Shown here piece by piece: positions 990 to 63,113 of a stretch of 64,000 nt of DNA. A model generated the notes under the pieces. It was given only the letters and a program-made list of their open reading frames with translations, did no database searches and had not been told where the DNA came from. Where the stretch lies: NCBI RefSeq assembly GCF_004010195.1, contig NC_057718.1:5292325-5356324 (forward strand). Reading direction: 5' to 3'. Within the stretch, counting starts at the first letter, position 1, and each line of letters opens with the position of its first letter. Source of the DNA: Chiloscyllium plagiosum. Taxonomy: Eukaryota. The position numbers were made by a program, and so were the translations under genes.

Positions 990-1126
990 GCTGAAAATGT
1001 GTTGCTGGAAAAGCGCAGCAGGTCAGGCAGCATCCAAGGAACAGGAGAATCGGCGTTTCGGGCATAAGCCCTTCCAGCAACACATTTTCAGCTCTGATCT
1101 CCAGCATCTGCAGCCCTCACTTTCTC
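990..1126. mobile_element. Short inverted-repeat Penelope-like relic, family A (internally deleted)
   Basis: gctgaaaatgtgttgctggaa...ttccagcaacacattttcagc inverted arms; 14-bp TSD ccagtagtagcata at 976-989 and 1127-1140. Confidence 0.75.
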
Positions 1127-1529
1127 CCAGTAGTAGCATATCCTTCCTGAGATAAAGAGCATGAACAGTTCACTCTATTCCAGCTGTGGTCCAACTACTG
1201 CTTTTATCATTTTTGCAAGAATTCACTTTTTGTACACTCCATTCTCTTTGAAGTAAAGCCAACAATTCATTTGCTTTCCCCATTACTTGCTGAACTTGGA
1301 TGCTAGCTTTCTTGATTCATGCCTCTGTACTGCAGCTTTCCTCAGTCTTTCACCTTTTAAATAATAAGCAGCTTCCTTATTCTTCCTGCATGACTTCACA
1401 CCTTCCCATATTATAGTCCATATGACAAGTTTTTGCCCACTCAAACTCTATCTATATCCCTCCGCAGTGTCTCTGTGTCATTCTTATGGCTGGCTATCAT
1501 TCTTCCCTGTGATGGGTCATCACTTGTGG

Positions 1530-4190
1530 AACATAGAACAATACAACGCAGAACAGGCCCTTTGGCCCTCGATGTTGCGCCGACCTGTGAACTAATCTAA
1601 GCCCGTTCCCCTATACCATCCCATCAGCATCCATGTGCTTATCCAAGGATTGTTTAAATCTCACTAATGTTGCTGAAGCCCCTCGTACAAGCTGACGTCA
1701 TCATCCTTAGAAAAAGATTTTCACTGTCTAGCCTATCTAATCCTCTGATCATCTTGGGTGTCTCTATCAAATCCCCTCTTAGCCACCTTCTTTCCAAAGA
1801 GAATAGACCCAAGTCTCTCAGCTTTTCCTCATAAGACCTTCCCTCCAGATCAAGCAATATCCTGGTAAATCTCCTCTGCACCTTTTCCAATGCTTCCACA
1901 TCCTTCCTGTAATGGGGTGACCAGAAATGTACACACTTTTCCAAGTGCGGCCACACTAACATTTTGTATAGTTGCAGCATGATATTATGGCTTCGGAACT
2001 CAATCCCTCGACCAATAAAATCTAACACACCGTATGCCTTCTTAACAGCACTATTAACCTGGGTGGCAACTTTCAGGGATTTATGTACATGGACATCAAG
2101 ATCCCTCTGCACATCCACACTACCAAGAGTCTTTCCATTGACCCAGTACTCTGCCTTCCTGTTATTCTTCCCAAAGTGAATCACCTCACATTTATCTACA
2201 TTGAACTCCATTTGTCACCTCTTGGTTCAATTCTGCAGTTTATCCAAGTCCCCCGCAACATTCTTCCACACTGTCTGCTACTCTACCGACTTTAGTGTCA
2301 TCTGTAAATTTACTAATCCATCCACCTATGCCTGCATCCAAGTCATTTATAAAAATGACAAACAGCAGTGGTCCCAAAACAGATCCTTGTGGCATACCAC
2401 TCGTAACCGGACGCCAGGCTAAGTATTTTCCATCAACCACCACTCGCTGCCTTCTTACAGAAAGCTAGTTTCTAATCCAAACTGCTAAATCACCCTTAAC
2501 CCCATTGCCTCTGCATTTTCTCCAACAGTCTACCATGTGGAACCTTATCAAAGGTCTTACTGAAGTCCATGTACACCACATCAACACCCTCCCTCATCCA
2601 CATGCTTGGTCGCCTTCTCAAAAAATTCAATGAGGTTTCTGAGACATGACCTGCCCTTGAAGAAACCATGTTGACTATCTGCAATCAAATTGTTGCTTGC
2701 TAGATGATTATAAATCCTATCTCTCATAATCCTTTCCAAAACATTTCCTACAAAAGACATAAGGCTCACTGGTCTGTAATTACCTGGGTCATCTCTACCG
2801 ACTTTCTTGAACAAGGGATCAACATTTGCAATCCTCCAGTCCTCTGGTACTAAACCTGTAGACAATGATGGCTCAAAGATCAAGGCCAAAGGCTCCAACA
2901 CCTCCTCCCTAGCTTCCCAGAGAATCCTCGGATAAATCCCATCCGGCCCAGGGGCTTGTCTACTTTCATTATTTCTAGAATTGGTAACACCTCTTCCTTA
3001 CTAACCTCGATCCTTTCTAGTCTAATATCTTGTACCTCATTCTTTTCTTCTACAATATTCTCCTTTGCTTGAGTGAAAACCGATGAGAAATATTCGTTTA
3101 GCACCTCTCCGATCTCCACAGGGTCCACACACAACTTCCCACTTCTGTCTTTGACTGGCCCTATTCCAACCTGGTCGTCTTTTTATTCCTCACATACCTA
3201 TAGAAAGCTTTAGGGTTCTCCTTTATTCTACTTGCTAAAGACTGCTCATATCGTTTCTTTGCTCTTCTTAACTCTTTCTTTAAATCCTCCGAGCTACTCT
3301 GTAACTCTCTATCGCCCCATCTGAACCATCTCGCCTCATTGTCATATAAGCCTCCTTCTTCCGCTTAACAAGAGATGCAATTTCTGTAGTAAACCACGGT
3401 TCCCTTACCTTATCACTTCCTTCCTGCCTGACAGGGACATACCTATCAAGCACATGCAATATCTGTTCCTTAAACCAGCTCCACATTTCGATTGTCCCCA
3501 TCCCCTGCATTTTGCGACACCATTCTATGCTTCTTAAGTCTTTTCTAACCACATTATAATTGCCGCTCCCCATTGATAACTCTTGCCCTGTTGCATGTTC
3601 CATCGCTTAACTAAACGTAACCGAATTATGGTCACTTTCCCCAAAGTGCTCACCTATCACTAAATCAAACACCTGGCCTGGTATATTACCAAGCACCAGA
3701 TCCAGTGTGGCCTCCCCTCTTGTCTGCCCTTCAACATACTGTGTCAGGAAACCCTCCTGCACACATTAGACAAAAACTGATCCACCTGAAGTCCCCCATA
3801 ATGACCACCCTGTTCCTATCATTCCTACCCAGAATCATTTTGCCAACCCTCACCTCCACATCCCTGGAACTCTGCGGAGGCCTATAAAATACTCCCAGCA
3901 GTGTGACCTCTCCTATCCTGTTTCTAACCTCAGCCCAGACCACCTCAGTAGACGAGTCCTCGTCAAAAGTTCTTTCAGCCACCGTTATACAGTCCTTGAC
4001 TAACAAGGATACACCTCCCCCTCTTTTACCGTCTTGCCTGATCTTGATGAAAGATCCAAACCCTGGAACCTGCAACATCCATTCCTGACCCTGCTCTATC
4101 CATGTCTTCGAAATGGCCACAATATCGAAGTCCCAAGCTCACCTACCTTATTTTGAGTACTTCTGGCGTTGAAGTAAACACACTTCAAAC
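1530..4190 (-). mobile_element. CR1 LINE, degenerate ORF2 (endonuclease and RT)
   Basis: Fragmented ORFs with [71 protein letters not shown]; (ttctatg)-type 3' tail near 1530. Confidence 0.93.
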
Positions 4191-8179: not shown

Positions 8180-11100
8180 CAGACATCGGAAGGGAAAAAG
8201 GATGAGATTCTGAAGGGAGAGTACAGAGAGTTAGGCAGGAATTTAAAAAGGTCCTCAAGAGTAGTAATATCTGGAATACTCCTGGTGCTACGAGCTAGTG
8301 AGGGCAGGAATAGGAGAGCTGAAAATGTGTTGCTGGAAAAGCGCAGCAGGTCAGGCAGCATCCAGGGAACAGGAGAATCGACGTTTCGGGCATAAGCCCT
8401 TCTTCAGGAAGGGCTTATGCCCGAAACGTCGATTCTCCTGCTCCTTGGATGCTGCCTGACCTGCTGCGCTTTTCCAGCAACACATTTTCAGCTCTGATCT
8501 CCAGCATCTGCAGACCTCACTTTCTCCTCCTAGGAATAGGAGAATAGAGCAGATGAATGCATGGCTGAGGAGCTGGTTTATGGGAGAAGGATTCACATTT
8601 TTGGATCATTGGAAAATGATTTGGTGTAGAAGTGACCTGTACAAGAAGGACATATATGCACATAAATTGGAAGGGGACTAATATATTGGCAGGGAGATTT
8701 ACTCGAGCTGCTTGGGAGGATCTAAACTAGTAAGATGGGGTGGTGGGACCCAGGGAGAAAGTGAGGAAAGAGATCAATCTAAGACTGGTACAGTTGAGAA
8801 AAGAAGCAAGCCAAACAGTCAAGGCAGGCAGGGACAAAGCAGAGAAAAAGGTAGGACTGGTACATTTATTTCAATACAAGAGGCCTAACAGGGAAGGCAG
8901 ATGAACTCAGGGTATGGTTAGGAACATGGGACTGGGATATCATAGCAATTACAGAAACATGGCTCAGGGATGGGCAGGACTGGCAGCTTAATGTTCCAGG
9001 ATACAAATGCTGCAGGAAGGATAGAAAAGGAGGCAAGAGAGGAGGGGGAGTGGCATTTCTGATAAGGGATAGCATTACAGCTGTGCTGAGGGAGGATATT
9101 CCCAGAAATACATTCAGGGGAGTTATTTGGTTGGAACTGAGAAATATGAAAGGGGTGATCACCTTATTATAGACCCCCTAACAATCAGAGGGAAATTGAG
9201 AAACAAATTTGTAAGGAGAGCCCAGTTATTTGTAAGAATAATAGGGTGGCTATGGTAGGGGATTTTAACTTTCTAAACACAGACTGGGACTGCCATAGTG
9301 TTAAGGGTTTAGATGGAGAGGAATTTGTTAAGTGTGGACAAGAGAATTTTCTGATTCAGTATGCGGATTTACCTAGTAGAGAAGGTGCAAAACTTGACCT
9401 ACTGTTGGGAAATAAGGCAGGGCAGGTGACTGTGGGGAGCACTTTGGTGCCAGTGACCATAATTCTATTAGTTTTAAAATAGTGATGGAAATGGATAGAC
9501 CAGATCTAAAAGTTGAAGTTCTAAATTGGAGAAAGGCTAATTTTGACGGTATTAGGCAAGAACTTTCAAAAACTGTTTGGGGGTAGCTGTCCGCAGATAA
9601 AGGGCCTGCTGGAAAATAGGAAGCCTTCAGAAATGAGATAACGAGAATCTGGAGAAAGTATATTCCTGTTCGGGTGAAAGGAAAGGCTGGTAGGTGTGGA
9701 GTATGCTGGATGACTAGAAAAGTTGAGGGTTAAGAAAAAGAAGGAAGCATATGTCAGGTCCAGACAGGATAGATCAAGTAAATCCTTGGAAGAGTATATA
9801 GGCATTAGGAGTAAACTTAAGAGGGAAATCAGGAGGGCAAAAAGGGGACATGAGATAGCTTTGGCAAATAGAGTTAAGGAGAATCCAAAGGGTTTTTACA
9901 AATACATTAAGGACAAAAGGGTAACTAGGGAGAGAATAGAGCCACAGGAGATGGGGAGATGCTAAACGAGTATTTTGCATCAGTGTTTACTGTAGAAAAC
10001 GACATGGAAGATATAGAATGTAGGGAAAAAGATGGTGACATCTTGAAAAATGTCCATATTACAGAGGAGGAAGTGCTGGATGTCTTGAAACACATAAAAA
10101 GTGGATATATCTCCAGGACCTGATCAGGTGCATCCAAACACTCTTGGGAAGCTTGGGAAGTGATTGCTGGACCTCTTGCTGAGATATTTGTATCATCAAT
10201 AGTCACAGGTGAGATGCCAGAAGATTGGAGGTTGGCTAATGTTATGCCATTATTTAAGAAAGGTGGTAAGGACAAGCAAGAGAACTATAGACCAGTGAGC
10301 CTGACCTCGGTGGTGGGCAAGTTGTTGGAGGGAATCCTGAGGGACAGGATGTACATGTTTTTGGAAAGGCAAAGACAGATTAGGGATAGTCAACATGGCT
10401 TTGTGTGTGGGAAATCATGTCTCACAAACTTGATTGAGGTTTTTGAAGAAGTAACAGAGAGGATTGATGAGGGCAGAGTGGTAGACGTGATCTATATGGA
10501 CTTCAGTAAGGTATTCGACCAGGTTCCCCATTGGAGACTGATTCACAAGCTTGTGAAATACAGGGAGAACTAGCCATTTGGATACGTAACTGGCTCAAAG
10601 GCAGGAGACAGAGGGTGGTGGTGGTGGAGGGTTTTTTTTCAGACTGGAGGCCTGTGACCAGTGGCGTACCACAAGGATCGGTGCTGTGTCCACTACTTAT
10701 TGTCATTTACACAAATGATTTGGATGCGAGCATAAGAGGTACAGTTAGTAAGTTTGCAGATGACACCAAAATTGGAGGTGTTGTGGACACCTCAGATTAC
10801 AACAGGATCTTGATTGGATGGGCCAAGGGCTGAGGAGTGGCTCATAAATGCGAGGTGCTGCATTTTGGGAAAGCAAATCTTAGCAGGACTTATACACTTA
10901 ATGGTAAGGTCCTAGGGAGTGTTGCTAAACAAAGAGACCTTGGAGTGCAGGTTGCAAGCTCCTTGAAAGTGGAGTCGCAGGTAGATAGGATAGTGAAGAA
11001 GGCGTTTGATATGATTTCCTTTATTGGTCAGAGTATTGAGTACAGGAGCTGGGAGGTCATGTTGCGGCTGTACAGGACATTGGTTAGGCCGTTTTTGGAA

Positions 11101-11967: not shown

Positions 11968-12180
11968 CATGATTTGGAGATGCCGGTGTTGGACTGGGGT
12001 GTACAAAGTTAAAAATCACACAACACCAGGTTATAGTCCAACAGGTTTAATTGGAAGCACTAGCTTTCGGAGCGCTGCTCCTTCATCAGGTGGATGATGA
12101 AGGAGCGGCGCTCCGAAAGCTAGCGCTTCCGATTAAACCTGTTGGACTATAACCTGGTGTTGTGTGATTTTTAACTTTGT
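11968..12180. mobile_element. Family B palindromic Penelope-like relic
   Basis: About 85-bp inverted arms (acaaagttaaaaatcacacaacaccaggttatagtccaacagg... and its reverse complement) centred near 12092. Confidence 0.8.
12058..12092 (-). ncRNA. Minimal type-I hammerhead ribozyme motif (family B)
   Basis: Minus strand CAC CTGATGA A GGAGC AGC GCTCC GAAA GC TA GTG: 3-bp stem I, intact core, 5-bp stem II, palindromic AGCT stem III, CUA cleavage triplet. Confidence 0.75.
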
Positions 12181-12700: not shown

Positions 12701-12939
12701 GATTATAGCAATTAATAATTGTGTGGTTTGAGCACATTATAAAGAGAGATAAGGTGATACTGCATTGTTAGGTGGGAAGCTGATATATGTGATGCTCTAT
12801 TCTGGAAATAAATGTAAGATCAAGAAAAGTATTTGTATTTGAGTATTTTACTTTACCAACTATCTTGGATTGTATTAACATGACTGGACAATAGCAGTCT
12901 ATCTCCAATAAAGTGGCCCAGACTAATGCGAAGGGCTGG

Positions 12940-13155
12940 AACAATTCAAAGAACTGTGGATGCTGGAGATCTGAAACAAAAACAGAAATTGCTGGAGAAA
13001 CTCAGCAGGTCTGGCAGCATCTGTGCGAAGAAATCAGAGTTAATGATTCGTCAGTTCTGATGAAGCATTACTGGACTCGAAATGTTAACTCTGCTATCTT
13101 CCCACAGATGCTGCTAGACCCCTTGAGTTTTGCCCGCAATTTCTGTTTCAAACAA
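12940..13155. mobile_element. Family D degenerate palindromic element (old, Penelope-like)
   Basis: Arms gaaacagaaattgctggagaaactcagcagg / ...tttctgtttc with decayed core agtt CTGATGA...GACTC GAAA TGTT aact. Related copies at about 18590-18795, 19085-19200, 24410-24560, 33178-33305, 42190-42390 and 43695-43850. Confidence 0.55.
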
Positions 13156-13517
13156 TAAGGGCTGCACAGGTACTGAGTAATGGTGCAACTCTTAGAACAA
13201 CCTTTTCACTCTCTCTCAAGCAAATAAGTGATGACCTTTCATTGTTGTTATGTGTGAATGTGCTTCAACATTAGGGAAAGAAGTAAACAGTGCTGACCTG
13301 CTTACATTAGCGGTGAAGTGAGTGATTACAGGTGGGATTTCTGAAGAGGAAGGCTTGTGGCAAGTTTGTGAAAGACTGTGAAATTAAGATGAAAAATGGT
13401 CAGTGGGGAACATTAAGTGTCTGAACTGCAATGGATAACGATAAAAAGCAGGAACAAGGAGAACACAACACAAACCAAAAGGCATTAATTTCTAAACACA
13501 TAGTGAGGGACAGCTCA

Positions 13518-17357: not shown

Positions 17358-17454
17358 CTGAAAATCAAAATAGGGAAAATATCAGGAGGTCTGTGCAATG
17401 AGCAACAAGAGTATCCATGGATAATCAAAGCAAAATATTGTCGATGATGAAAAT

Positions 17455-18590
17455 AGAGTTATAGAATCTTGCAGCATGGAAACAGAGCCTTCAGTCTAAT
17501 TTGTCCATGCTGACCAGGTATCCCAAACTCAACTAGTCTCATTCACCTGTGTTTGGCCCATATCATTCACCTTGACCACCTCCTCCGACGGCTCATTCCA
17601 TACAGGCACCACACTGAAAACGTTGCCCCTCAGGTCATTTTAAAGTCTTTCACCTCTCACTTTAAACCTACACTGTCTAGTTTTAGTCTCCCTTACACTT
17701 GGGAAAAGACTCAGCTATTCACCTTATCTATGCTCCTTGTGATTTTATAAACCTCTATCAAATCACCTCTCAGGCTCCTAAGCTCCAGGGAGAAAGGTGT
17801 CAGCCTATTCAACCTCCCCTTATAACTCAAACCCACCAGTCCTGGTAATATTCTTATAAATCCTTTCTGCACCCTTTCTATTTTAAAACTATCCTTCCTA
17901 TTTTAACTTATCTGCTTTTACCAGCCTCAGGCAACTGTTTGTGTGGAGTTTGCATATTCTCCCAGTGTCTGTGTGAGTTTCCTCCTGATGCTCAAGTTTC
18001 CTCCCTCAGTCCAAAGATGTGCACGTTAGATGGATTGTCCACGCTACAGTTCCGATAGTGTCCTGGATGTGCAGACTAGGTGGATTAGCCACAGGAAATG
18101 CAGGGTTACAGGGATAGCGTAGGGGGCTGGGTTTGGGTGGAATGCTCTTCGGAGCATCGGTGTAGATTCAATGGGCTGAATGGCCTGCTTCCACACTGTA
18201 GGGATTCTACGATTCTACAGCAAGGCAACCAGAAAGATATGCATTATTTCAAAAGCGACTCCATTAATGCCTTGTAAAGCCACAACATGATTTCCCAACT
18301 CCTATACTCAATGCTCTGACCAACGGAGGCAAGCACCCTGTCTACCCTGATAACATGTAAGCTGCTTTCGAGGAACTATGACCCTGCACCCCTAGGTCTC
18401 TTATTCTACAACACTCCCCAGAGTCCCATGATTAACTGAGTACATCCTGCACTGGTTTGTCCTACCAGAATGCAACACCTTGCATTTTATTAAATTAAAC
18501 TTCATCTGCCACCTCTCGGCCTATTAACCTCTCTGATCAAAATCTTTGTACTCTTGAATAACCTTCTTTGTTATCCACTGTACCATCAAT
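17455..18590 (-). mobile_element. CR1 3' fragment in oprm1 intron 1, with a nested plus-strand HE1-like SINE piece (about 17921-18218)
   Basis: Reverse complement of the CR1 3' end, interrupted by gtgtggagtttgcatattctccc...ccacactgtagggattcta. Confidence 0.75.
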
Positions 18591-19488
18591 TTTTGCTGGA
18601 GAAACTCAGCAAATCTGGCTACATCTGTGGAGAGAGAAATAGTGTAACTATTTTTAAGTCTAGTATGACTCTTCTTCAGAATCCTTCCGTTCTTCATCAG
18701 TTCTGAAGAGGAGTCATATAATACTCAAAAAGTTTCTGTTTTTCTCTCTATAGATGCAGCTAGACCTGCTGAGTTTTGCCAGTGTTTTCTGTGGGATTAT
18801 CCATAGACCAGTGATTACCACGATGGACACTCAGGGCACAACAGCACAAAATGCTTCTTCAGCCTTCATCTTAGCCGGTCCCTCAGTGAGTTAGTTCCTA
18901 CTACATTCAGTTCATTAGCAGCACAGGTTAGACACCAATTGAAGTTCTCCACATACTCTCAGGCATTTTCAGGGCACGTAATGTACAGATTAAATATGTC
19001 ATAAGGTTCCTTTTACACTGGCCCACCAAAAACTTTCAGGGCAGCTACCACACTGGGTGTGGTCAGGTGAAGTTCCCATCAAATGGTCCCCAGAATAAAC
19101 AGAATTGTGGAGAAACTCAGCAGATCTGCTAACATTTGTGGAGAGAGAAACAGAGTTAACATTTTGAGTACAACATGACTTTTTTTTTCAGAATGCTGCA
19201 TTATGGAGGGATCTAGATGTCCTTGTACAAGAATCACAAAAAAGCTAGCACGAAAATGCAGAAATTGGGAAGGCAAACTGATTGTTTGCAAGGGAGATTG
19301 AATGTAAAAGTAAACAAATCTTGCTACAACTGTACAAGACATTGGTGAGGCCATACCTGGGATCATGGGTACCATTTCCTTTCTTATTCAAGTCAGCTAA
19401 TGTGGTTAGTTAGGCACCAAATGCTCCCAAGATCAAACACAGAATTGTAGAAAAACTCAACAGGTCTGGTTGCATCTGTGGAGAGAGA

Positions 19489-21092
19489 GTTAAAAATCAC
19501 ACCGGGTTTATTTGGAACCAATAGCTTTCGGGGAGTGCTGCTCCTTCATCAGGTAGCTGTGGGACAGGATTATAAGACAAAATTTATGGCAAAAGATTAC
19601 AGTGTCATGCAATTGACATGATATATTAAACAAACCTAGATTGCTGTTAAGTCTTTCATCTTTTAGATTGGGTTGCAGGTTTCCATTCATTAATATGTAA
19701 ATCACAGAACTTCCTTCAAATCACATTCAAGATAACTTAAGGCTTCATAGAAAAGGTGACATCTCAGCTCAGACAGTATATTAAAGGCGTGAGGTTAGAG
19801 TCTGTATCCCAATATTGAGTCAGACTGGTTCTATTTCCAAAGTAGGAATTTATTACATGGATTGACTGCCTGCAGGTTGTGTGCTTTTTGAGCAAAAGAG
19901 AATGTATCAGCAAATATAATTCTGTAAGTGTAAGTTCACCCCAGAGACTTGTGTGCGTGTGCATGAGAGAGAGAGTGAGTGTGTGCATGTGAGTGGGTGT
20001 GTGAGAGTGTAAGTGCACGAGAGAGAGTGTGTGTTTGTGTGTGCATGCTTGGTACAGTGTGTGTAATAAGCCTGTTGGAGGGTACGCGCATGGGAGAGTG
20101 TGGGGAGTGTTTCGGTGTCTGTATGAGAGAGAGTGTGTATGAGAGAGGGTCTGCATGAGTGACTAAAAAAGGTGTGTGTGTGTGTATGAGAGAGTGTATG
20201 GTGTGGTGAGGTCACCTGTAGTGTGACATGAGCCCCAGGTTCTGGTTGAGGCTATCCTCATGGGTTCCGAACTTGGATATCAGCCACTGCTTGGCCATTC
20301 TGCATTCCGGCCTCAACTGGAACCTGGGGTTCATGTCACACTAGAGTGACCCTACCACACGATACGCTTCAACACACGCTTATTTACTCACACTCATGCA
20401 GACCCTCACTCATACAGACTTACAGTTCCCACAGCAATCCACGCACACACTAACAGGCTTATACTTCATCGCATACACTTTATCAAGTATGTGCACACAC
20501 AAACACACTCACGTGCAGACACATGCACCCACTCACAGTCTCTCACATGCACACGCACACACAAGTCTATGGGGTGAATTTGCACTTACAGAATTATATT
20601 TGCAGATACATTCTATTTTGCTCAAAAAGCACACAACCTGCAGACAGTCAATCCATGTAATATTTTATAAATTCCTACTTCGGAAATAGAACCAGTCTAA
20701 CTCAGGATTGGGATACTGACAGACTCTAACCTCACACCTTTAATATATCTTGAGCTGAGATGTCACCTTTTCTTTCTATGAAGCCGTAAGTTATCTCAAA
20801 TGTGATTTGAAGGAAGTTCTGGGATTTACATATTAATGAATGGAAATGTGCAACAAAATCTAAAAGATGAAAGACTTAACAGCAATCTAGGCTTGTTCAA
20901 TATATAATTTCAGTTGCATTAAACTATAATCTTTTGCTATAATATCTATGACTTATGATCCTGTCCCACAGCTACCCGATGAAGGAGCGATGCTCCAAAA
21001 GCTAGTGCTTCCAAATAAACCTGTTGGACTATAACCTGGAGTTATGTGATTTTTAACTTTGCTCACCCCAGTCCAACACTGGTTCCTCCACG
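19489..21092. mobile_element. Large family B Penelope-like element: two 5'-truncated copies in inverted orientation (about 0.8 kb arms)
   Basis: Arms 19489-20307 (-) and 20308-21092 (+). Minus-strand translation near 20215-20300 is RMAKQWLISKFGTHEDSLNQNLGLMSHYR*, resembling a PLE GIY-YIG C-terminus. Contains CA-rich spacers and decayed hammerhead cores near both ends; duplicated flank tgtggagagaga. Confidence 0.78.
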
Positions 21093-22619
21093 TTGTGGAG
21101 AGAGAAATAGAGTTAACATTTTGTGTCTGGTATGACTTCCTCAGAACTGAAGAACAACTGAAGGATTCTGAAGAAGAGTCACTCCAAACTCTCAATGTTT
21201 ACACTGTTTCTCTCTAACTGCTGGCTTGGAGGGGTTGTCTGAGGAGGAAAGGACAAGCAGGTTGGGTGTAAGCTCATGGGAGTTCAGCAGAATGAGAGGT
21301 GATTTTACTGAAACATAAGATTCTGGGGAAACTTAACAGAGAAAAGAATTGAAGGATGTTTCCCACAAGAAGGGAATCTATAACCAGGGGACAGTCTACA
21401 AATAACATGTATCCCATTTATGATGGAGATGTGGAGATATTTCTTCTCTCAAGTGTTTGGATTTCTGTTTCAGAGCAGTGGAGATTGGATCATTGAGTTA
21501 GAGTTTTCATTTACAAGGCAGTTAAGTGTTATGGACAGTTGTGGGAGGCAGAAAAATTGAGTCGAGACCACAATCTGACCAGCCATGATCTTATTGAATG
21601 ATGGAACAGGCTGAAGAGGCTGAATGGCCTACTCCTGTTTCTTGTGTAACCACAGCATGATTTAGCAAAGAAAGACAGGCTTACATTTGAATAGCTCATC
21701 TCAAGAACACTGGACATCCCAAAGCACTTTGGAACTGCAGATTCTGTTGCAATTTAGAAAATAGGAATGTGTGTACACAGTAAACGCCCATAAAAAGCAG
21801 CCTAGTCAGTTCCTGTTTGTGATGTTGATTGATGGATAAGTATTGGTCAGGTGAGTGAGCTTATCTTTCCCATTGAACCTGGTCGAAATAGTGTCAAGAC
21901 TTAATTTATTATGCTCAGGGAGCAAGTGGGAGGCTGTTTAGGGTAAGGTCTCCATTTGACATCTCACTGAAAAGACAAACTCCCTCAGGGATTAACCTAC
22001 AATTTGCCCTGGGAACATTTGCCTGGAAAAAGAACAATAAAGCTGTCTCTACACTATTGTTTCAAACAGCGATTCAGCATCCTGCATCTTGGAGGTCAAT
22101 TGTCATAGATTGAGAGACAAAGTTATAGATTAAGGCAGTGTCCTGTGAAAAGAATAATATTGCCAAGGAGCCAAAGCAAAACAAGAATCAATGGGTATCA
22201 GGGACAAACTCCCTGCAAGTTGGAGTCATACCAGGCACATAGAAGATGATTGTGGTTGTTGGAGGTCAGTCATCTCAGTTCCAGAACATCTCTGCAGGAG
22301 TTCCTCAAGTTAGTATTCAAGGCGCAAACATCTTCAACTGCTTCATCAGTAACCTTCCCTCCATCATGAAGTCGGAAGTGAGGATGTTTGCACAATGTTC
22401 AGCACCTGTTGTGACTCCTAAGACACTGAAGCAGTCTATGTTCAAATGCAACCAGATTTTGACAATGTCTGGGGTTAGGCTGACAAGTGGGAAGTAATAT
22501 TCATGCCAGCTAACGATCATGCCAATAAGAGGCAATATAATCACTGGCCAATGATATTCAATGGTGTTACCCCACCATCAACATCCATGGGGTTACCATT
22601 CACTAGAAACTAAACTGGG

Positions 22620-23770
22620 TAAAAACAATGACTGCAGATACTGGAAATCAGATTTTGGATTAGTGGTGCTGGAAGAGCACAGCAGTTCAGGCAGCATCCG
22701 AGGAGCAGCGAAATCGTCGTTTCGGGCAAAAGCCCTTCATCAGGAATAAAGACAGGGAGCCTGAAATGTGCAGAGATAAGCTAGAGGAGGGTGGGGGTGG
22801 GGAGAATAGAGTACAATAGGTGTGCGGGGGAGGGGATGAAGGTGATAGGTTAGGGAGGAGGGTGGAGTGGATAGGTGGAAAAGAAGATAGGCAGATAGGA
22901 CAAGTCATGGGGACAGTGCTGAGCTGGAAGTTTGGAACTAGGGTGAGTGGGGGAAGGGGAAATGAGGAAACTGTTGAAGTCCACATTGATGCCCTGGGGT
23001 TGAAGTGTNNNNNNNNNNNNNNNNNNNNNNNNNNNNNNNNNNNNNNNNNNNNNNNNNNNNNNNNNNNNNNNNNNNNNNNNNNNNNNNNNNNNNNNNNNNN
23101 NNNNNNNNNNNNNNNNNNNNNNNNNNNNNNNNNNNNNNNNNNNNNNNNNNNNNNNNNNNNNNNNNNNNNNNNNNNNNNNNNNNNNNNNNNNNNNNNNNNN
23201 NNNNNNNNNNNNNNNNNNNNNNNNNNNNNNNNNNNNNNNNNNNNNNNNNNNNNNNNNNNNNNNNNNNNNNNNNNNNNNNNNNNNNNNNNNNNNNNNNNNN
23301 NNNNNNNNNNNNNNNNNNNNNNNNNNNNNNNNNNNNNNNNNNNNNNNNNNNNNNNNNNNNNNNNNNNNNNNNNNNNNNNNNNNNNNNNNNNNNNNNNNNN
23401 NNNNNNNNNNNNNNNNNNNNNNNNNNNNNNNNNNNNNNNNNNNNNNNNNNNNNNNNNNNNNNNNNNNNNNNNNNNNNNNNNNNNNNNNNNNNNNNNNNNN
23501 NNNNNNNNNNNNNNNNNNNNNNNNNNNNNNNNNNNNNNNNNNNNNNNNNNNNNNNNNNNNNNNNNNNNNNNNNNNNNNNNNNNNNNNNNNNNNNNNNNNN
23601 NNNNNNNNNNNNNNNNNNNNNNNNNNNNNNNNNNNNNNNNCCTCCTCTAGCTTATCTCTGCACTTTTCAGGCTCTTTTATTCCGGATGAAGGGCTTTTGC
23701 CCGAAACGTCGATTTTACTGCTCCTCGGATGCTGCCTGAACTGCTGTGCTCTTCCAACACCACTAATCCA
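22620..23770. mobile_element. Long family A Penelope-like inverted element spanning an assembly gap
   Basis: Inverted arms on each side of the gap; TSD agaaactaaactgg. Minus-strand translation next to the gap is LQPQGINVDFNSF (PLE ORF C-terminus-like). Decayed hammerhead cores at about 22714-22746 (-) and 23680-23714 (+). Confidence 0.75.
23009..23640. other. Assembly gap (N run)
   Basis: 632 N. Confidence 1.
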
Positions 23771-34137: not shown

Positions 34138-34780
34138 TGATTTGGAGGAGCAGATGTTGGCCTGGGTGTACAGAGTAAAAAATCGCACATCAGGTTATAG
34201 TCCAACAGGTTTATTTGGAAACACTAGCTTTCAGAGTGCTGTTCCTTCTGACAATCACCTGATGAAGGAGCAGCGCTCCGAAAGCTAGTGCTTCCAAATA
34301 AACCTGTTGGACTATAACCTGGTTCTGGATGTAGGTTTACTCGCTGAGCTGGAAGGTTCCGTTTCAGACGTTTCATCACATTACTAGGTAACATCGTCAG
34401 TGAGCCTCTGGATGAAGCACTGCTAATGATCCTGCTTTCTATTTATATGTTTGGGCTTCTTTCTGTTGGTGATGTCATAGATCTATCAACAAACACATTG
34501 AACTGGACCCCATTTACCACCCCTGAGAAAAAGAACGGGAAATGACATCACCACAGGAAGCGACATCAAAAACCCAAAGAAACCCAAACATATAAACAGA
34601 AAGCAGGAATCATCAGCAGTACTTCATCCAGAGGCTCACTAATGATGTCACCTAGTATGGTGATGAAACATTTGAAAATGAACATTCCAGTTCAGTAAGC
34701 AAACTTACATCCACAACCTCAAACTGAGTGACAAATCTTCTCAAAACCCATTAACTATAACCTGGTGTTGTGTAATGCTT
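34138..34780. mobile_element. Family B element containing a nested family C palindromic element (about 34324-34752)
   Basis: The family B arm is interrupted and resumes after a duplicated actataacctggt. The inner element has long inverted arms (ggatgtaggtttactcgctgagctggaagg... / ...ccagttcagtaagcaaacttacatcc). Confidence 0.78.
34256..34290 (+). ncRNA. Minimal type-I hammerhead ribozyme motif (family B)
   Basis: CAC CTGATGA A GGAGC AGC GCTCC GAAA GC TA GTG, identical to the minus-strand copy at 12058-12092. Confidence 0.75.
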
Positions 34781-40166: not shown

Positions 40167-42423
40167 GGGAATTCAAATATTGCAATAATTTGAATTTACA
40201 AATGCAAGGTAAATGAAAAATTGAACTGTTCCTTGCTGTTGAATTACAATGGCTCAGCTATTTTAGCATTTTTACATTTAATTTCCATTAATAATGACAA
40301 TTTAGATTCTGATAAATAGTGCTTGCAATTCCTGTAAGGAGACACAATTCTCACTGATTCAAAAACATTAATTTACGTCAAAAATCTCTTTGTTTTGCTA
40401 GTTTGCATTGTAAGCTTAATAGACTTCAGGCAGCTTGCTTAAACAATGATATGTTTATGAGAATAAAATATTACAATTAACACTGAATGGATTTACAATT
40501 TTTTCATTGAACTGACTCCACCATTTTTCATTCATGTCGCTGTTTCCAAATAATTAATCAGCTTGGATTAGGAGTGAACCCATATAAAAATCTGACATGC
40601 TTTAATCAAAATTAGCACCACAAAGCACTATCATCTGTGCCACTGTTGGGACCCTGATCTTCATGGGCATGTGTAAGAGTTGACTAATTGGGTGCGACTT
40701 CTCTTCTGAGTCCAATGGTTTTGCATTTAACCCCACTTTAGAATTTGAGCTTATAGTCAGGAGGCAAGCATTCCAGTGTTGTATTCAGGCAATACAGCAG
40801 TGTGAGATGTACCATCTTTCTTATCCAACATTAAACCAGAGCCGTATTTACCCAAGAGCGATTCAAAGAGTAGTGCCATGAGTCAGCATTGTATGCATTC
40901 AAAATTCTTTCAGAACTTGATAGAATAGATGCAAGCATGATATTTGTTTCTTCATCAGAGGAGCCTCGAACCAGGGAACACAGAATAAGGAATCAGCCTT
41001 TAGGACTGAGATGAGGAGGATTTTCTTCACATAGAGGGTGGTAGATCTTTGGAATTCTCTACCCCAGAGTGAAATGGGTACTCAGGAATTGCATCTGTTT
41101 GAGACAAACAATAGATTCCCAGACACTAAACATATCAAGCAATATGGAGATAATGTGGGAAAATTATATTGAGATAGAATGATCGGTCCTGATCTGGCTG
41201 AATACTGGTGTAGGCTCAAGGTGATGAATGGTCTCCTCTGGATCTTATTTCCTACTTTTCTATGTTTCTCAAACTAATGATGACCTGGTCATGATTTCAC
41301 TGCTGACTTAAGGATATTGCCACCATAAATTGAGCACCATGTTTCCCTGTTTTAAAATAATACCTACATTTTCAAAATACCTCAAAGGGATGTTTTGGGA
41401 TAAGCTGACGTGATGTTATATAAATATAAGTCTGATCTAATTGCAGAAACAATCTAATGCCAACATTTTTTTTTGAATTTGCAAATCATTTACATTTTCC
41501 ACTCAACTGCTTCATAATCACTGATTGAGTTGCAGAATATTATGCTTTACGTTGGCCTCACACACTGTATACTGAATCTTTTAGATCATTCAGTGAATAT
41601 TGCTATCTGTCCTATGGCCTGAGAATCATTTATCCCATTTCACCCACATGGTAAAAAGTCCCCCAAAACATTGCACTTCCACATCGTTGCCATTCAGATG
41701 CACTTAGATAAAAGGCAAATTGAGTCCTGTCTAAATCATGTCATCAACTAAATCATGTCACCAATTCACTCTAATTTGTTCAACCATTTCCTTGAAGGTA
41801 TGACAAGTGGTGGCAATTCATAATTCTCCTGGTATTTTAGTAAAGGTGTGAACATTGGACAGTGGATACCTGGGAACACCGTCATCTGCAATTTCCCCTC
41901 CAAGCCACTGGACATTCTGACTTGGAAATATGCTGCTGTTCCTATAGTGTTGCTGTGTCAAAATCCTGGAAGCTCCTCTTTAACTGCACTGTGGGTGTAC
42001 CTACAACAAAAGGATGCAATGGTTCATGAAGACCCACCAACACCTTTTCTGAGGCAATTAATAATTGACAATAAATGTCTACATCTTGCAAAAGAATATT
42101 ATTAAAAAGTCAGTAGATTCTCTTATAAATCATTCAAATATAGTCCAATTTCATTGTCGTCATCAAGGGTTGGAAGAAAGTGATGGGCCAAATCAAAACC
42201 GACTCCCTGGCAGAGACCGCGATTGGAGCAAATTCTCAACAAGGATAAGCAAACCGAACGTTTCGAATTCAGATTGAGCTCGAATTGACTCGAAAGGTGA
42301 ACTCCGTTTCTCTCATTACGGATGCTGCCAGACTTGCCGAGTTTCTCCAACACTTTCTGTTTTTATTTCAGGTTTTCAGCATCCACGGTGTTTCCCGAGA
42401 GAAATCCCTGCGGGGCTTATGAT

Positions 42424-45089: not shown

Positions 45090-46712
45090 CAGTTAGGAGG
45101 GTGAGAAAGGGCAAAGAAATATCCTTGGCAAGTAGGATTAAGGAGAATCCCAAGGCATTTTATACGTATATCAGGAGCAAGAGGAGATTGAGGGAAAGAG
45201 TAGGCCCACTTAAGGACAAAGGAGGGAATTTATGTGTGAAACCATCGGAAGTGGGTGAGGTCCTGAATGAGTATTTTGCATCAGTATCCACCAAGGACAA
45301 TGACATAGATGATGGCAAGTTTAAAGAAGGATTTGTTGATATTCTAAGGCTTGTCGATATTAAGAAGGAGGTGGTGTTGGAGTGGCTTCAGAAACATTAA
45401 GGTAAGTAAGCCCCCAGAACCTGATGGAGGAGGCAAGGAGACTGCTGAGCATTGACAAAGATCTTTGTATGAGCTGAAAATGTGTTGCTGGCAAAGCGCA
45501 GCAGGTCAGGCAGCATCCAAGGAGCAGGAGAATCGATGTTTCGGGCATGAGCCCTTCTTCAGGAATCGTCCGAAACATCAATTCTCCTGCTCCTTGGATG
45601 CTGCCTGACCTGCTGCGCTTTTCCAGCAACACATTTTCAGCTCTGATCTCCAGCATCTGCAGTCCTCACTTTCTCCTCAAATATCTTTGTATGTACTTTA
45701 TCAACAGGTAAGGTCCACAAAGATTGGAGAATAGGCAATGCGGTCCTTTGCTTCAAGAAGGGCAACAGGGATAATCCAGGAAATTAAAGGCGAGTGAGGG
45801 AAATTATTAAAGAAGATTCTTATCAACAGGATTTGCTTGCATTTGGAGGAGAATGGATGTATTAGGAGTACTCAGCATAGCTTTATGCAGGGGAGGACTT
45901 GTCTCTCAAACTTGATTGAGTTTTTTTGAAGCATTGACAAAGATTGATGAGTTAAGGCAGTGGATGTTGTCTACTTGGACTTTACCAAAGCATTTGACAA
46001 GGTCCCTCATCATAGGTTGGTCCAGAGATCAAATTGAATGGAATCCATGGTAAGTTGGCAAGTTGGATACAACATTGGCTTGGTCAGAGAAGACAGAAGG
46101 TAATTGTGGCAGGGCTTCACTGACTGGAGGTCTGCGTACACAAGAATCAGCACTGAGACCTTTGTTATTTGCAATACATGTCAATGATTCCGATGAAAAC
46201 ATTGATGGTCTGATTGGTACGTTTTCAGATGAGAAACAAATTGGTAAAGTTGTGAATAGTGAGGAAGGTTGTCAAAGGATGCAGCAAGACATGGATTTTC
46301 TGAAAGGTGGTGGAGAAATAGCAGAAGGTGTTTCATCCGGACAGGTGTGATGTTATGCATGTTTAGAGGTCAAATACAAGAGGAAACTATACTGTAAATG
46401 GTCAGAATGTTAGGAGCATTGATACACAGAATGATCTTGGTGTCCAAGTCCATAGCTCCAGGAATGTGGCAACACCAGTGGGTGGATAAGGTCGTAAAGA
46501 AGGCATAAAGCATGCTTACTTTCAAGGCAATTGGTCAGGCATTGAGTTTAAAAGTTACCAAGTCATGCTGCAGTTGTATAAAACTTTAGCTGGGCCACAG
46601 TTAAAGTACTGTGTGCAATTCTGATCACTACAGTAAGGGCATAGAGGCTTTGGAGAGGGTGAAGAAAAGGTTTACCAGGATGCTGCCTGGATTAGAGTTT
46701 ATGAGCTATTAA
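45090..46712 (+). mobile_element. Degenerate CR1 ORF2 with nested family A element (45472-45682)
   Basis: KENPKAFYTYIRSKR, LNEYFASV remnants; insertion bounded by TSD atctttgtatg. Confidence 0.85.
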
Positions 46713-51953: not shown

Positions 51954-52148
51954 AGTGAGGACTGCAGATGCTGGAGATCAGAGCTTAAAAATGTGTTGCT
52001 GGAAAAGCGCAGCAGGTCAGGCAGCATCCAAGGAGCAGGAGAATCGCCATTTCGGGCATAAGCCCTTCTTCAGGATTCTCAAAACGTTGATTCTCCTTCT
52101 CCTTGGATGCTGCCTGACCTGCTATGCTTTTCCAGCAACACATTTTTA
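51954..52148. mobile_element. Family A palindromic Penelope-like relic
   Basis: Inverted arms; 15-bp TSD agcatatcaacagca. Confidence 0.8.
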
Positions 52149-52239
52149 AGCATATCAACAGCAGTCAAGCATAAATAAAGGAACAATCAGGTTATCTTAA
52201 GATTATCGATTCATTAAAAAATCACAGCCAGATTATCAA

Positions 52240-57726: not shown

Positions 57727-57855
57727 CCTGATGAAGAACTTATGCTCGAAACATAGACTCTCCTGCTCCTCTGATGCTGCTAGACCAGCTGAGCGTTTCT
57801 AGCACCACACTTTTCAACTCTGATCTCCAGCATCTGCAGTCCTCACTTTCTCACA
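57727..57855 (+). mobile_element. Family A single-arm relic starting at the hammerhead core
   Basis: cctgatgaagaacttatgctcgaaacata...ccagcatctgcagtcctcactttctc; 14-bp TSD gtggtctcactatt. Confidence 0.7.
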
Positions 57856-60828: not shown

Positions 60829-61374
60829 TTATAATTCATTGACTCACAGGGTCATAGAAACGTACAGCACAGAAACAGACCCTTCAGTCCAACACATCCA
60901 TGCCGACCAAATCTCCTAAATTAATCTAGTCTCATTTACCAGCATTTGGCCCTTATCCGTCTAATCCTTTCCTATTCATATCCCATCCAGATACCTTTTA
61001 AATGTTGTAAGTGTACCAGCCTCCACCACCTCCTCTGGCAGTTCATTCAGTCTGAAAAAGGTTACTTCAACTCTCCTCTCCATGGTAACAGGTATAAACT
61101 GGATTTGTGTTCAAATTGGAATATGAATTAGTCTCCCCGAATTGCAATTGTTTTTCATCTTAGAAACAATGGGACTGGTTCTGTACCAACTATTTCCAAT
61201 CTGATACTAATAACACACTGATTTAAGACACTCAGACGTTCCTCTTTGTAAGCCTTGAAACAACTGTCTTTGTCCCTGTATTAACATTTGGCATCTCTTT
61301 GTCAATAACGAAATGTGAATCTTTGATTAAACCGCTAAACACATTCAGGTCAGGATCCTGCACGAGTCATTTCA

Positions 61375-62607
61375 CTTCTTTGGAGGCAGTTCAGAAAAGA
61401 TTTACTGGGCTTGACATTTCTTAGTTTGGAGAATAATGATCAAAGGATAAACAGATTGGGACTCTACTCATTGGAGTTTAGCAAAATGAGAGGTGATCTC
61501 ATTAAAATTTATCAGATTCTAAATGGGCTCGACAGGGTTGAAGTTGAGAGGATATTTCCCCTCATGGGAGTGTCTCGGACCAGATGGTATAGTCTCAGAA
61601 TAAAGGGGCTCCAATTTAAGATTGAGATGAGGAGGAATTTCTTCTCTGAGGGTTGTGAGTCTTTGGAACTCCATACCACAGAGAGACCTGTGGGGGCAGA
61701 GTCCAGAATCTCAGTGAGTCTCTCTCTCACTGCAACCCCTAGGTCATCTCCTCTGCCCTGAACTATGCTACTTTCTCCCCCCCCCCCCCAACCCCCTCTC
61801 ATTTATCTCTCCACTCTGCAGGCACCCTGTCTCTATTCCTGATGAAGGGCTTTTGCCCGAAACGTCGATTTTCCTGCTCCTCAAATACTGCCTGACCTGC
61901 TGTGTTTTTCCAGCACCAATCTAATCTAGACTCTGGTTTCCAGCATCTGCAGTCCTTGTTTTTACCAGGGCAGAGTCCATGTGAACCTTTAAGGCTGAGA
62001 TAGATTCTTGATCAGTTGGGGAATCAAGGGTTACGGGGAAATGACAGGAAAGCAGATGTGAGATATTTCGGGTCAGTTGGGACATCATGTTGAGGTTGAT
62101 GAAGCCTCTTCTAGAATACTATGTGTAGCTCTGGTCTCCCAGTTATTGGCAGGGTATGACTAAACTGGAGAGGGTTCATAATAGATTTATCAAGATGTTA
62201 CCAGGACTGGAATGTTTGAGTTATAAAAATAGGTTGGTTCGACTGGGATTTCTTTCACTGGAGCGTAGGAGGTTGAGGGGTGACCTTATAGAATTATGAA
62301 GTCAGGCGAATATCAAAGGTCATTTTCCTAAGATGGGAGAATTCAAGACTAGAGGGCACATTTTTCAGGTGAGAAGAGAAAGATTTAGAAAAGACATGAG
62401 GGGCAATTTTTTATGCAGAGTGGTTAGTGTGTGGAATGAACTACGAGAGGAAGTGATGGATGTGGGTACAGTTACAATGTTTAAAATGCATTTGGATAAG
62501 TACATGAATAAGAAATGTTTAGAGGGATATGGTAAAATGCAGGCAGCTGGAACTAGTTTATTTTGGGAGCAAGTTGGCATGGACTAGCGAGACTGAAAGG
62601 TCTGTTT
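61375..62607 (+). mobile_element. Two CR1 3' fragments, the first split by a family A insertion (61706-61967)
   Basis: RLGLYSLE...RGDLIKIYQIL and TRGHIFQV remnants; TSD gggcagagtcca at 61694-61705 and 61968-61979. Confidence 0.78.
61835..61870 (+). ncRNA. Minimal type-I hammerhead ribozyme motif (family A)
   Basis: ATTC CTGATGA A GGGC TTTT GCCC GAAA C GTC GATT: intact core, 4-bp stem II, palindromic ACGT stem III, GUC triplet; stem I is weak. Confidence 0.68.
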
Positions 62608-63113
62608 GTTAATGTGGAGGAGCCAGTGTTGGACTGGGGTGAACAGTTAAAAATCACACAACACCAGGTTATAGTCTAACAGGTTTATTTAGAAGCACTA
62701 GCTTTTGGAGCGCTGCTCCTTCATCTGGTAGCCGCGGAGCAGGATGATAAGACATAGAATTTATAGCAGAAGATCACCATGTCATGCAACTGAAATGATA
62801 TATTGAACAGACCTAGATTGCTGTTAAGTCTTTCATCTTTTAGAATGGGTTGCAGGTTTTGGTTCATTAATATGTAAATCCTAGAAGTTCTCTCAAGTCA
62901 CATAACTTAAGGATTTTTAACAAAAAGGTGACACCTCAGCTCAGACAATGCATTAAAGGTGTGAGGTTAGAGTCTGTCTGTATCTTAATTTTGATTCAGA
63001 CTGGTTCTATTGCCAAAGTGGAATATTACATGGATTGACTGCCTGCAGATTGTGCACTTTTTGAGCAAATAAGCCTGTTGGACTATAACCTGGTGTGTGA
63101 TTTTTAACTTTGT
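62608..63113. mobile_element. Family B Penelope-like element (long arm plus short inverted arm), inserted in a CR1 tail
   Basis: Matches 19489-19900; ends with inverted cctgttggactataacctggtgtgtgatttttaactttgt; the CR1 tail resumes as ccatgctgtatgactctatgac. Confidence 0.8.

Follow-up and report, generated by a model that had tools for sequence, protein, structure and literature searches.

Inverted insertions with minimal hammerhead motifs in Chiloscyllium plagiosum as probable truncated products of Penelope-like elements

Introduction

The pseudo-LTRs of Penelope-like elements (PLEs) in metazoans have been described as carrying minimal type-I hammerheads (Cervera and de la Pena, 2014, PMC4209133). 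The hallmarks of PLE insertion, in the sections of Craig et al. (2021, PMC8557442) used here, are inverted 5'-truncated copies and a tail of 30-40 bp at one end. Purified PLE protein acts on both strands, which it nicks and extends; it begins reverse transcription at two internal sites, which define the tail, ~90 nt past the hammerhead cut site (Frangieh et al., 2024, PMC11167929). Other described carriers of hammerheads include the non-LTR retrozymes of animals (Cervera and de la Pena, 2020, PMC7229834; Li, Clavereau and Pollet, 2026, preprint; both cited for selected sections) and Sm-alpha, introduced in the part of PMC6155905 consulted as a non-autonomous retroposon of Schistosoma mansoni.

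The window analysed here is a stretch of 64,000 nt of the Chiloscyllium plagiosum genome (contig NC_057718.1, positions 5,292,325 to 5,356,324). A preliminary description, made from its sequence, had recognised about 20 short inverted-repeat insertions in four families (A-D) with dissimilar flanks and one hammerhead architecture, and had read them as PLE remnants or non-autonomous derivatives.

Results

Inventory of the insertions

Approximately 20 insertions were delimited between positions 990 and 63116 (seven of family A, four of B, two of C and seven of D, plus two weak D-like pieces; Table 1), their count and coordinates lying close to those given before, and together they cover ~10% of the window. 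The depiction of these insertions as short inverted repeats was correct in part, since palindromic pairs are common but A7, A8, D3 and D6 are single-armed and four pairs are longer (A3-A4, 1.15 kb with an N gap inside; B2-B3, 1.6 kb; B5-B6, 0.5 kb; C3-C4, 0.7 kb), paired insertions beyond the short class thus spanning 0.4-1.6 kb. The target-site duplications (TSDs) reported earlier were confirmed, with clear examples of 12-16 bp in 8/20 insertions, weak ones (8-10 bp, one mismatch) in three more and none found in the remainder. The centre of B2-B3 was without coding potential, its arms, the longest here (~750 bp), holding only low-complexity sequence upstream. For the very high copy number proposed earlier, contig depths give no more than a hint.

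Table 1. Insertions and hammerhead motifs in the window, with deviations counted against the strict descriptor
Insertion	Position	Strand	Structure	Hammerhead	Tail	TSD
A1	990..1126		head-to-head; short 3' end on left arm	without CUGA box	right arm	14 bp
A2	8318..8531		palindromic	8380-8407 minus, intact	arm opposite hammerhead	12 bp
A3-A4	22619..23769		long head-to-head pair around N gap 23009-23640	22716-22743 minus, 23683-23710 plus, 1 deviation each	A3 only	14 bp, perfect
A5	45472..45677		palindromic	45535-45562 minus, 1 deviation (CpG to CpA)	arm opposite hammerhead	16 bp, 1 mismatch
A6	51954..52148		palindromic	52046-52073 minus, 2 deviations	hammerhead arm	15 bp
A7	57727..57855	+	single arm, starts 1 nt before CUGA box	57728-57755, 2 deviations	at end	14 bp
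A8	61744..61966	+	single arm, ~95 nt precede hammerhead	61839-61866 plus, intact	present	not found
B1	11972..12179		palindromic	12061-12089 minus, intact; 12094-12122 plus, near-copy (C3 changed)	minus-strand arm	no clear TSD
B2-B3	19489..21093		head-to-head pair, arms ~750-840 bp, nested within D4/D5	19522-19552 minus; 20976-21004 plus	B3 only	12 bp, perfect
B4	34140..34790		palindromic, split by C1-C2	34259-34287 plus, intact	left arm
B5-B6	62611..63116		460-bp minus-strand arm, 50-bp inverted arm ending at short site	62699-62727, minus-strand arm, 2 deviations	minus-strand arm	not found
C1-C2	34324..34753		head-to-head pair within B4	remnants 34367-34400 minus (1 deviation), 34639-34672 plus (3 deviations)	C2 only	13 bp
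C3-C4	55586..56282		head-to-head pair	remnants 55627-55660 minus, 56169-56202 plus, 2 deviations each	C4 only	weak
D1	12939..13156		palindromic	13057-13086 plus, decayed, 3 deviations, 3 nt lost from stem II	left arm	weak
D2	18590..18795		palindromic	remnants 18703-18734 plus, 18647-18679 minus	apparently absent from either arm
D3	19097..19190	-	lone decayed arm
D4	19434..19488		left portion of D insertion divided by B2-B3
D5	21094..21250		right portion of D4's insertion; right end approximate	remnants 21116-21144 minus, 21168-21199 plus
D6	24440..24560	+	single arm	decayed, from 24460
D7	33157..33310	-	decayed arm; approximate ends
D8	42318..42400	-	arm fragment; approximate ends	without 5' half

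Hammerhead motifs exceed chance expectation

As proposed in the preliminary description, a descriptor of the minimal hammerhead was run over the window, consisting of CUGANGA, 0-1 bulged nt, a stem II of 4-7 bp closed by G10.1-C11.1, a loop of 3-8 nt, GAAA, a complementary 15.2/16.2 pair, U16.1 and H17. Four intact motifs (A2, A8, B1 and B4) were identified in this strict form as opposed to none in 300 first-order Markov windows, and relaxation to at most two deviations gave 18 matches, every one within families A-D, compared with 20 in 40 random windows (~0.5 per window), confirming that the claimed architecture is present. The 12 matches with exactly three deviations were uninformative (7.7 expected per window), and the bare pattern CTGANGA...GAAAC occurred nine times versus 1.5 expected. 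Rfam returned no match in the window at gathering scores and 17 at E ≤10, none of them to a hammerhead family.

For comparison of individual positions, 20 arms without indels were parsed, five D arms (D1, D5R, D6, D3 and D7) being omitted. Over these the catalytic core matched in 204/220 cells and stem II was paired in 92/97, with different stem sequences in each family, as had been claimed: pair 10.4-11.4 is C-G in A, G-C in B, A-U in C and U-A in D, while 10.2-11.2 is G-C in A and B, U-A in C and A-U in D. G10.1 is invariant and is partnered by C in 16 arms and by U in four, and a bulged nucleotide is present in all 20 (A in 15, U in four, G in one). The CUGANGA and GAAA boxes, U16.1 and H17 are perfect in the four intact copies; families C and D hold no copy intact by the strict descriptor and conform only by majority reading of decayed copies. 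The zero-loop palindromic stem III noted previously (ACGU or AGCU) was seen as the family majority, with a palindromic, dimer-permitting 15.2/16.2 pair that is Watson-Crick in 13/20 arms, the remainder showing mostly CpG-type changes. By eye, helix I is 4 bp in D right arms, 3 bp in B and C and 2 bp in A, reaching 7 bp in A6 only.

The covariation anticipated for these stems was recovered between families. Within families, conservation of the motif did not exceed that of the 3' flank (0.91 against 0.90 in A, 0.945 against 0.953 in B and 0.90 against 0.92 in C). Inserted copies decay neutrally, the hammerhead not being maintained in them. Many of the motif changes are accounted for by CpG transitions.

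Concerning the separation into four families with dissimilar flanks, the flanks of B and C had no match elsewhere in the window, but A and D arms were found to align over ~70 nt at 72-76% identity, being homologous despite their different compensated stem II sequences. A and D therefore form one lineage, and the independent lineages number three (A/D, B and C) rather than four.

Arm ends, tails and junctions

Head-to-head pairs of 5'-truncated arms with their 3' ends outward make up 11 insertions of families A-C, in addition to D1, D2 and D4/D5, and a TSD encloses the whole pair in A1, A2, A3-A4, A5, A6, B2-B3 and C1-C2. In families A-C the 3' ends of the arms fall into two discrete classes 33-40 nt apart, which in family A lie 60-63 or 92-101 nt past the predicted cut site; B and C have the same two classes, with a tail of ~30-40 nt. 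The tail is borne by exactly one arm in all 11 head-to-head insertions of these families, a pattern with a chance of at most 0.5^11 if the arms were independent. No poly(A) was visible in the element sequences examined. The arms continue without a break across the predicted cleavage site and none begins or ends there, which indicates that the templates were not cleaved monomers. A1, A2, A5 and A6 all differ in their inner junctions, indicating that each hairpin arose at insertion. D2, apparently tailless on both arms, has an asymmetric 19-nt centre in common with D4/D5, and these two features are better explained by the copying of a unit that was already inverted than by two-strand priming. 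The bases immediately upstream of D6 resemble the short 3' end of the unit, and judging from this likeness D6 may be a partial tandem junction.

Coding context

Neither a PLE reverse transcriptase nor a GIY-YIG frame was detected in the 26 of the window's 86 open frames that were scanned (~118 aa or more), which contained only a GPCR and LINE-type RVT_1 and Exo_endo_phos domains. Comparison with solved structures, made for two RT fragments, showed a resemblance to R2 and L1 and not to telomerase-type RT. Truncated PLE copies are expected to be frameless.

Discussion

The insertions are very probably dead-on-arrival insertion products of PLEs, with arms that represent 3'-terminal RNA modules. 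The inverted pairs, the tail on one arm and the variable TSDs match the published PLE signature and therefore support this reading, which the preliminary description had already favoured; the head-to-head truncated arms, the two 3' ends and the single tail are hallmarks independent of the ribozyme that had not been drawn on before, and the variation of the TSDs between 12 and 16 bp and the absence of poly(A) add further support. Weighing against it are the absence of a PLE frame among the frames scanned, the LINE-like character of the two RT fragments compared, the low-complexity content of the longest arms, a helix I of 2-4 bp in most copies, the lack of an Rfam hammerhead match, motif conservation no higher than that of the 3' flank, the want of intact copies in C and D, and the tails and shared centre of D2 and D4/D5.

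In the anatomy observed, each arm begins at or close to a minimal type-I hammerhead, after which come 41-63 nt (short end) or 78-101 nt (long end, tailed). From this anatomy we infer a series of enzymatic steps. A PLE reverse transcriptase/GIY-YIG endonuclease, presumably supplied by an autonomous partner encoded elsewhere, would nick both target strands 12-16 bp apart, and from each 3'-OH cDNA synthesis would be primed within the element RNA, beginning at either of two sites separated by 33-40 nt. The resulting cDNAs would then extend toward each other, often halting on reaching the 5' border of the hammerhead core, and be joined head to head, the expected outcome being an inverted pair whose 3' ends face outward, with a single tail, an insertion-specific junction and a TSD. 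In master elements the hammerhead would presumably be a processing site of weak activity that depends on dimers and may be assisted by protein, with predicted cuts after GUC, GCUA or GUU. For palindromic copies self-cleavage looks unlikely, because their transcript would be predicted to fold into one long hairpin. Cofolding of two family A copies predicted a different register, which says little.

Minimal hammerheads have been published for PLEs of fishes and other metazoans, so that the probable hammerhead-bearing PLE stubs in the window belong to an already known class. The motifs resemble those of Cervera and de la Pena (2014, PMC4209133) in their CUGANGA and GAAA cores, G10.1-C11.1, the lack of a helix III beyond the palindromic 15.2/16.2 pair, the presence in one genome of several consensus families that covary and, more loosely, a short helix I. 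In that study, too, single truncated elements account for most copies, and opposite-strand pairs 100-700 bp apart occur. In contrast to that study, the copies in the window show no link to any PLE reading frame and helix I is often 2-3 bp instead of 4-5 bp; cartilaginous fishes are not among the groups listed in its main text. Strong 5' truncation, inverted copies arranged head to head, a 33-40 nt tail on one arm only and 3' ends tens of nt past the hammerhead cut site are all shared with the PLE architecture, as set out in the portions of PMC8557442 and PMC11167929 drawn upon. Unlike described PLEs, the majority of copies in the window are reduced to extreme stubs of 100-215 bp with little beyond the module from hammerhead to RT start, and partial tandems (pseudo-LTRs) are not evident except for the possible D6 junction.

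An alternative to which only a low probability is assigned is that of dedicated short non-autonomous hammerhead retroelements, i.e. non-LTR retrozymes, spread from tandem arrays via self-cleaved, circularised RNAs. The short non-coding units, their type-I hammerheads, the occurrence in non-mammalian, non-avian vertebrates and the kinship with PLE pseudo-LTRs would all suit such elements as characterised in the retrozyme sections consulted, the junction in D6 could be head-to-tail, and a 2026 preprint (10.64898/2026.07.22.740005) reports them, in the part cited, from one chondrichthyan and argues for derivation from PLE pseudo-LTRs. However, retrozymes are defined, in those same sections, by tandem arrays and circular RNAs, while the insertions here are dispersed inverted pairs with no array in the window, where none of the five Tandem Repeats Finder rows falls on them; in addition, the arms are uncut across the predicted cleavage site, and a head-to-head pair with one tail is a PLE insertion signature and not a rolling-circle product. 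This alternative overlaps with the reading as PLE insertion products, because PLE enzymes would still mobilise such elements.

MITE-like or foldback DNA transposons, with hammerhead-like words in their terminal inverted repeats by chance, would account for short near-perfect palindromes between direct repeats, of which the A2 hairpin (~90 bp, -190 kcal/mol, z -27) is an example, but are very improbable given TSDs of no fixed length, outer ends of one insertion that differ by a 33-40 nt tail, an inner junction that is different in every copy and single arms with their own TSD, such as A7. These features contradict such transposons in the window, fitting neither cut-and-paste nor replicative copying. 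The slightest probability attaches to hairpin RNA genes such as microRNA precursors with a fortuitous likeness to hammerheads: the palindromes do draw weak matches to Rfam microRNA models (one at 46.8 bits where the gathering score is 81, among others), but every one is far under its gathering score, and this reading is contradicted both by the descriptor counts, with no strict match in 300 random windows, and by one core with compensated stem II in three lineages of unrelated flanks.

Sm-alpha, as presented in the part of its description used here, resembles the insertions read here as PLE products in being a short, dispersed, non-coding retroposon with a type-I hammerhead. Its hammerhead is of the canonical, not the minimal, form. 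An assembly gap lies inside one of the inverted pairs, and assembly problems arising from such structures are likewise noted in the sections of the PLE literature cited.

Census and families of the insertions

Insertions were identified by comparison of the window with itself and by reading of each copy, which gave about 20 insertions in families A to D, with summed intervals of approximately 6.4 kb of non-N sequence or about 10% of the window. Each consists of one or two arms, an arm being a 3'-terminal copy of the element with a minimal type-I hammerhead near its 5' edge. Clear target-site duplications (TSDs) of 12-16 bp were present at 8 of the 20 insertions, seven of them perfect and one with a mismatch. 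The B2-B3 pair is nested in the family D insertion D4/D5 with a perfect 12-bp TSD and the C1-C2 pair in B4 with a 13-bp TSD, and this nesting supplied the relative insertion order. The arms of families A and D could be aligned over about 70 nt at 72-76% identity, while the family B and C queries matched only their own family in the self-comparison. The four families with dissimilar flanks of the preliminary description are therefore better treated as three lineages (A/D, B and C) whose flanks are unrelated: B and C are indeed unrelated, but A and D are not independent. Likewise, its term short inverted repeats suits part of the insertions, whereas several have one arm only or span 0.4-1.6 kb.

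Families, insertions and distances of the outer arm ends from the predicted cut site
Family	Insertions	Members	Arm ends (nt past predicted cut site)
A	7	A1, A2, A3-A4, A5, A6, A7, A8	60, 62, 62, 63 or 92, 98, 100, 101
Long A subfamily			~57 or ~100
B	4	B1, B2-B3, B4, B5-B6	~53-57 or ~89-92
C	2	C1-C2, C3-C4	41-44 or 78-81
D	7	D1, D2, D3, D4/D5, D6, D7, D8; plus two weak D-like pieces	

Anatomy of the paired insertions

All paired insertions are arranged head to head: the antisense arm comes first, then the sense arm, and the 3' ends face outward. The outer ends of the arms fall into two discrete classes in each family, and an optional extension of about 30-40 nt (the tail) was therefore assigned to the long 3' ends. 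All 11 head-to-head insertions of families A-C have exactly one tailed arm, the decayed short end of B4 having been scored as short from the absence of tail sequence. Within family D, D1 obeys the same rule and D2 is seemingly tailless on both arms. The arms adjoin the TSDs directly, without poly(A), and continue uncut past the predicted cleavage site to end tens of nucleotides downstream at two alternative sites.

At the opposite end, the start of the sense arm was placed by eye 0-10 nt upstream of the CUGA box in nine short arms (A2, A5, A6, A7, B1, B4, D3 and the left arms of D2 and D5), and long forms run on for 50-750 nt. Arms thus preferentially begin at the 5' edge of the ribozyme core and not at the cleavage site. 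The less complete arm breaks off at reference-arm position 79 in A1, 15 in A2, 28 in A5 and approximately 29 in A6. The inner junction differs from one paired insertion to the next, so the hairpins were formed separately, one per insertion event, and did not spread as ready-made palindromes. D2 and D4/D5 depart from this pattern: unlike every other pair, these two have one asymmetric 19-nt spacer in common between their arms, and a unit that was inverted beforehand may have been retrotransposed or duplicated whole. The A3-A4 pair lies within a perfect 14-bp TSD and has a gap of 632 N exactly at its centre, which fits the published remark that inverted structures of Penelope-like elements (PLEs) break assemblies.

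No PLE frame was found among the 26 of 86 open frames of the window that were scanned, and upstream the longest arms consist of low-complexity, non-coding sequence, so that truncated autonomous PLEs and dedicated non-autonomous passengers are both compatible with these insertions. The centre of B2-B3 is of low complexity, and the family B element was therefore taken to be microsatellite-like in its upstream part.

Detection and structure of the hammerhead motif

The pattern CTGANGA...GAAAC gave 9 matches in the window against 1.5 expected. A strict minimal type-I hammerhead descriptor was composed of the boxes CUGANGA, 0-1 bulged nucleotide, GAAA, U16.1, H17 and a complementary 15.2/16.2 pair, together with a stem II of 4-7 bp with a G10.1-C11.1 closing pair and a loop of 3-8 nt. 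It matched four times in the window (two family A and two family B copies) and not once in 300 first-order Markov windows, so the hammerhead architecture claimed at the outset is largely real. Allowing up to two deviations gave 18 matches, all inside families A-D, compared with 20 matches over 40 random windows, while exactly three deviations gave 12 matches against 7.7 expected per window, of which 6 lie within families A-D and 6 are chance-like. Families C and D are without an intact motif in the window. A search of the window with Rfam matched no hammerhead family, either at gathering scores or at E values up to 10; the sole response to the palindromes was from microRNA models below threshold, because the insertions are palindromic.

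A covariance model built from seven family A motifs was dropped, the B, C and D copies being returned at E values of 0.04-9 among unrelated sites, and MAFFT aligned family C wrongly across families. Since the model was too family-specific, the structure was parsed by script in the 20 arms free of indels, leaving out D1, D3, D6, D7 and the right arm of D5. In these arms 204 of 220 core cells matched and 92 of 97 stem II cells were paired, a bulged nucleotide followed A9 in all 20, and G10.1 was invariant. Pair 10.4-11.4 is C-G in family A, G-C in B, A-U in C and U-A in D; this swapping family by family with pairing kept bears out the covariation of stem II between families, also for A and D, whose arms are homologous and whose stem II sequences are unlike yet compensated. 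Helix I has 2-4 bp in most copies.

Within families, conservation of the motif compared with the adjacent flank was 0.91 versus 0.90 in A, 0.945 versus 0.953 in B and 0.90 versus 0.92 in C, many of the motif changes being CpG transitions. The motif is therefore no better conserved than its flank at the level of individual copies, which tells against the preliminary description there, whereas between lineages the core and the pairing alone are shared. These comparisons indicate that individual copies decay neutrally. The transcript of a palindromic copy was predicted to form a single hairpin of about 90 bp (-190 kcal/mol, z -27), which would bury the hammerhead core. With such a fold, self-cleavage by copies at these loci, suggested earlier for some of them, looks unlikely. 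The predicted cofold of two motif copies differs in register from a double hammerhead, which says little about activity. Dimer cleavage is reportedly the subject of a 2017 paper by Lunse, Weinberg and Breaker.

Abundance was assessed on the contigs of three sequencing runs, representing three coded organisms; the runs were guessed to be RNA and may be DNA. The window repeats are very abundant in these organisms, with contig depth orders of magnitude above unique bins: in the bin 8348-8521 the summed word depth, which is not a copy number, was 3.5e5-1.7e6 compared with 2-660 in unique bins. A single raw RNA run gave 0 reads on the window, which does not amount to a test of expression. Two metagenome scans with the family A and B motif patterns gave 0 loci.

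Comparison with published PLEs and possible mechanism

The insertions are PLE-type stubs carrying the PLE minimal hammerhead, a known kind, and minimal hammerheads in PLE-derived repeats are already established. The core, stem II pairing, bulge and G10.1 traits are the same as those described for PLE minimal hammerheads (Cervera and de la Pena, 2014, PMC4209133), whose motifs occur in PLEs of diverse fishes, number about 4,000 in coelacanth and about 9,000 in Xenopus, also form opposite-strand pairs 100-700 bp apart and show only weak, dimer-dependent cleavage in vitro. Craig et al. (2021, PMC8557442) list heavy 5' truncation, partial tandems, inverted 5'-truncated copies and a 30-40 bp tail, often at one end only, with assembly problems as a result. 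In purified form, the anole PLE protein nicks the two DNA strands and extends both of them (Frangieh et al., 2024, PMC11167929); reverse transcription (RT) starts at two neighbouring internal sites, located 111-118 nt into the frame, the interval between them forming the tail, and the hammerhead is cut 26 nt into the frame. Ribozyme cleavage requires the protein, and insertion in vitro is unaffected by hammerhead mutants (PMC11167929). The arms in the window are alike in scale and logic, passing the cut site and ending at two sites. Head-to-head pairs, a tail at one of two ends and the uncut cleavage site match published PLEs and thus support the PLE origin proposed in the preliminary description. 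In the searchable literature, which leaves most subscription journals outside, no description of these shark-type families was found, and the sole relevant mention of cartilaginous-fish hosts was in one 2026 preprint.

A speculative reading, to which we give rather less than even credence, is that the stubs preserve, in nature, the traces of symmetric target-primed reverse transcription on two strands, carried out by a dimeric PLE enzyme. In each A-C pair (11/11) one arm would then have been started at the proximal RT site and its partner at the distal one, and copying would stop 0-10 nt from the 5' edge of the hammerhead core, as in the nine short arms, and not at the cleavage site; the hammerhead boundary would be either an RNP stop or the RNA 5' end. 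Were two-strand priming to hold genome-wide, two protomers would use two start sites in coordination and the hammerhead region would be a structural boundary of the copied RNA, not a processing site; the module could also have been amplified in this lineage to a very large number of copies. How PLEs transpose is as yet little understood, and tiny inverted stubs in their hundreds of thousands, with ends and junctions that can be read cleanly, would make a convenient natural data set on which in vitro two-strand nicking, the two RT start sites and the role of the hammerhead in vivo could be tested. Genome-wide follow-up might be worthwhile for two features alone, the strict one-tail rule and the recurrent 5' boundary. 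In annotation, stubs of this palindromic shape can pass for MITEs or microRNA hairpins; they also break assemblies.

Other features of the window

Coordinates of features in the window
Positions	Strand	Feature
1654-4547	minus	LINE fragment (RVT_1, Exo_endo_phos)
8870-11653	plus	LINE fragment (RVT_1, Exo_endo_phos); highly repeated in the contigs used for depth
15804-17458	minus	open frames 16820-17458 and 15804-16574, two halves of rhodopsin-family 7tm_1 (E 3.7e-39 and 4.1e-28); probably a single GPCR gene whose halves are separated by an intron or frame break
18628-18754		part of D2 with the shared 19-nt spacer
19824-20700		B2-B3 centre, CA/TC-rich, with a 16-bp tandem at 20117-20159
21093-21219		part of D4/D5 with the shared 19-nt spacer
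23009-23640		N gap in A3-A4
39642-39750	plus	U6 snRNA-like, full model, 29.3 bits (below gathering score of 44), E 0.0027; within repeated region 39483-40166
49945-50334	plus	LINE fragment (RVT_1, Exo_endo_phos)
52816-52949		second N gap, ~670 bp from A6
52956-53387	minus	LINE fragment (RVT_1, Exo_endo_phos)
60065-60299		tandem repeat, 46-bp unit, 5.1 copies, 91% matches

The DNA of the window is vertebrate-like. The U6-like sequence may represent a pseudogene of U6 or a repeat derived from it. For two of the LINE RT pieces the nearest solved structures were those of R2 and L1, not a telomerase-type RT.
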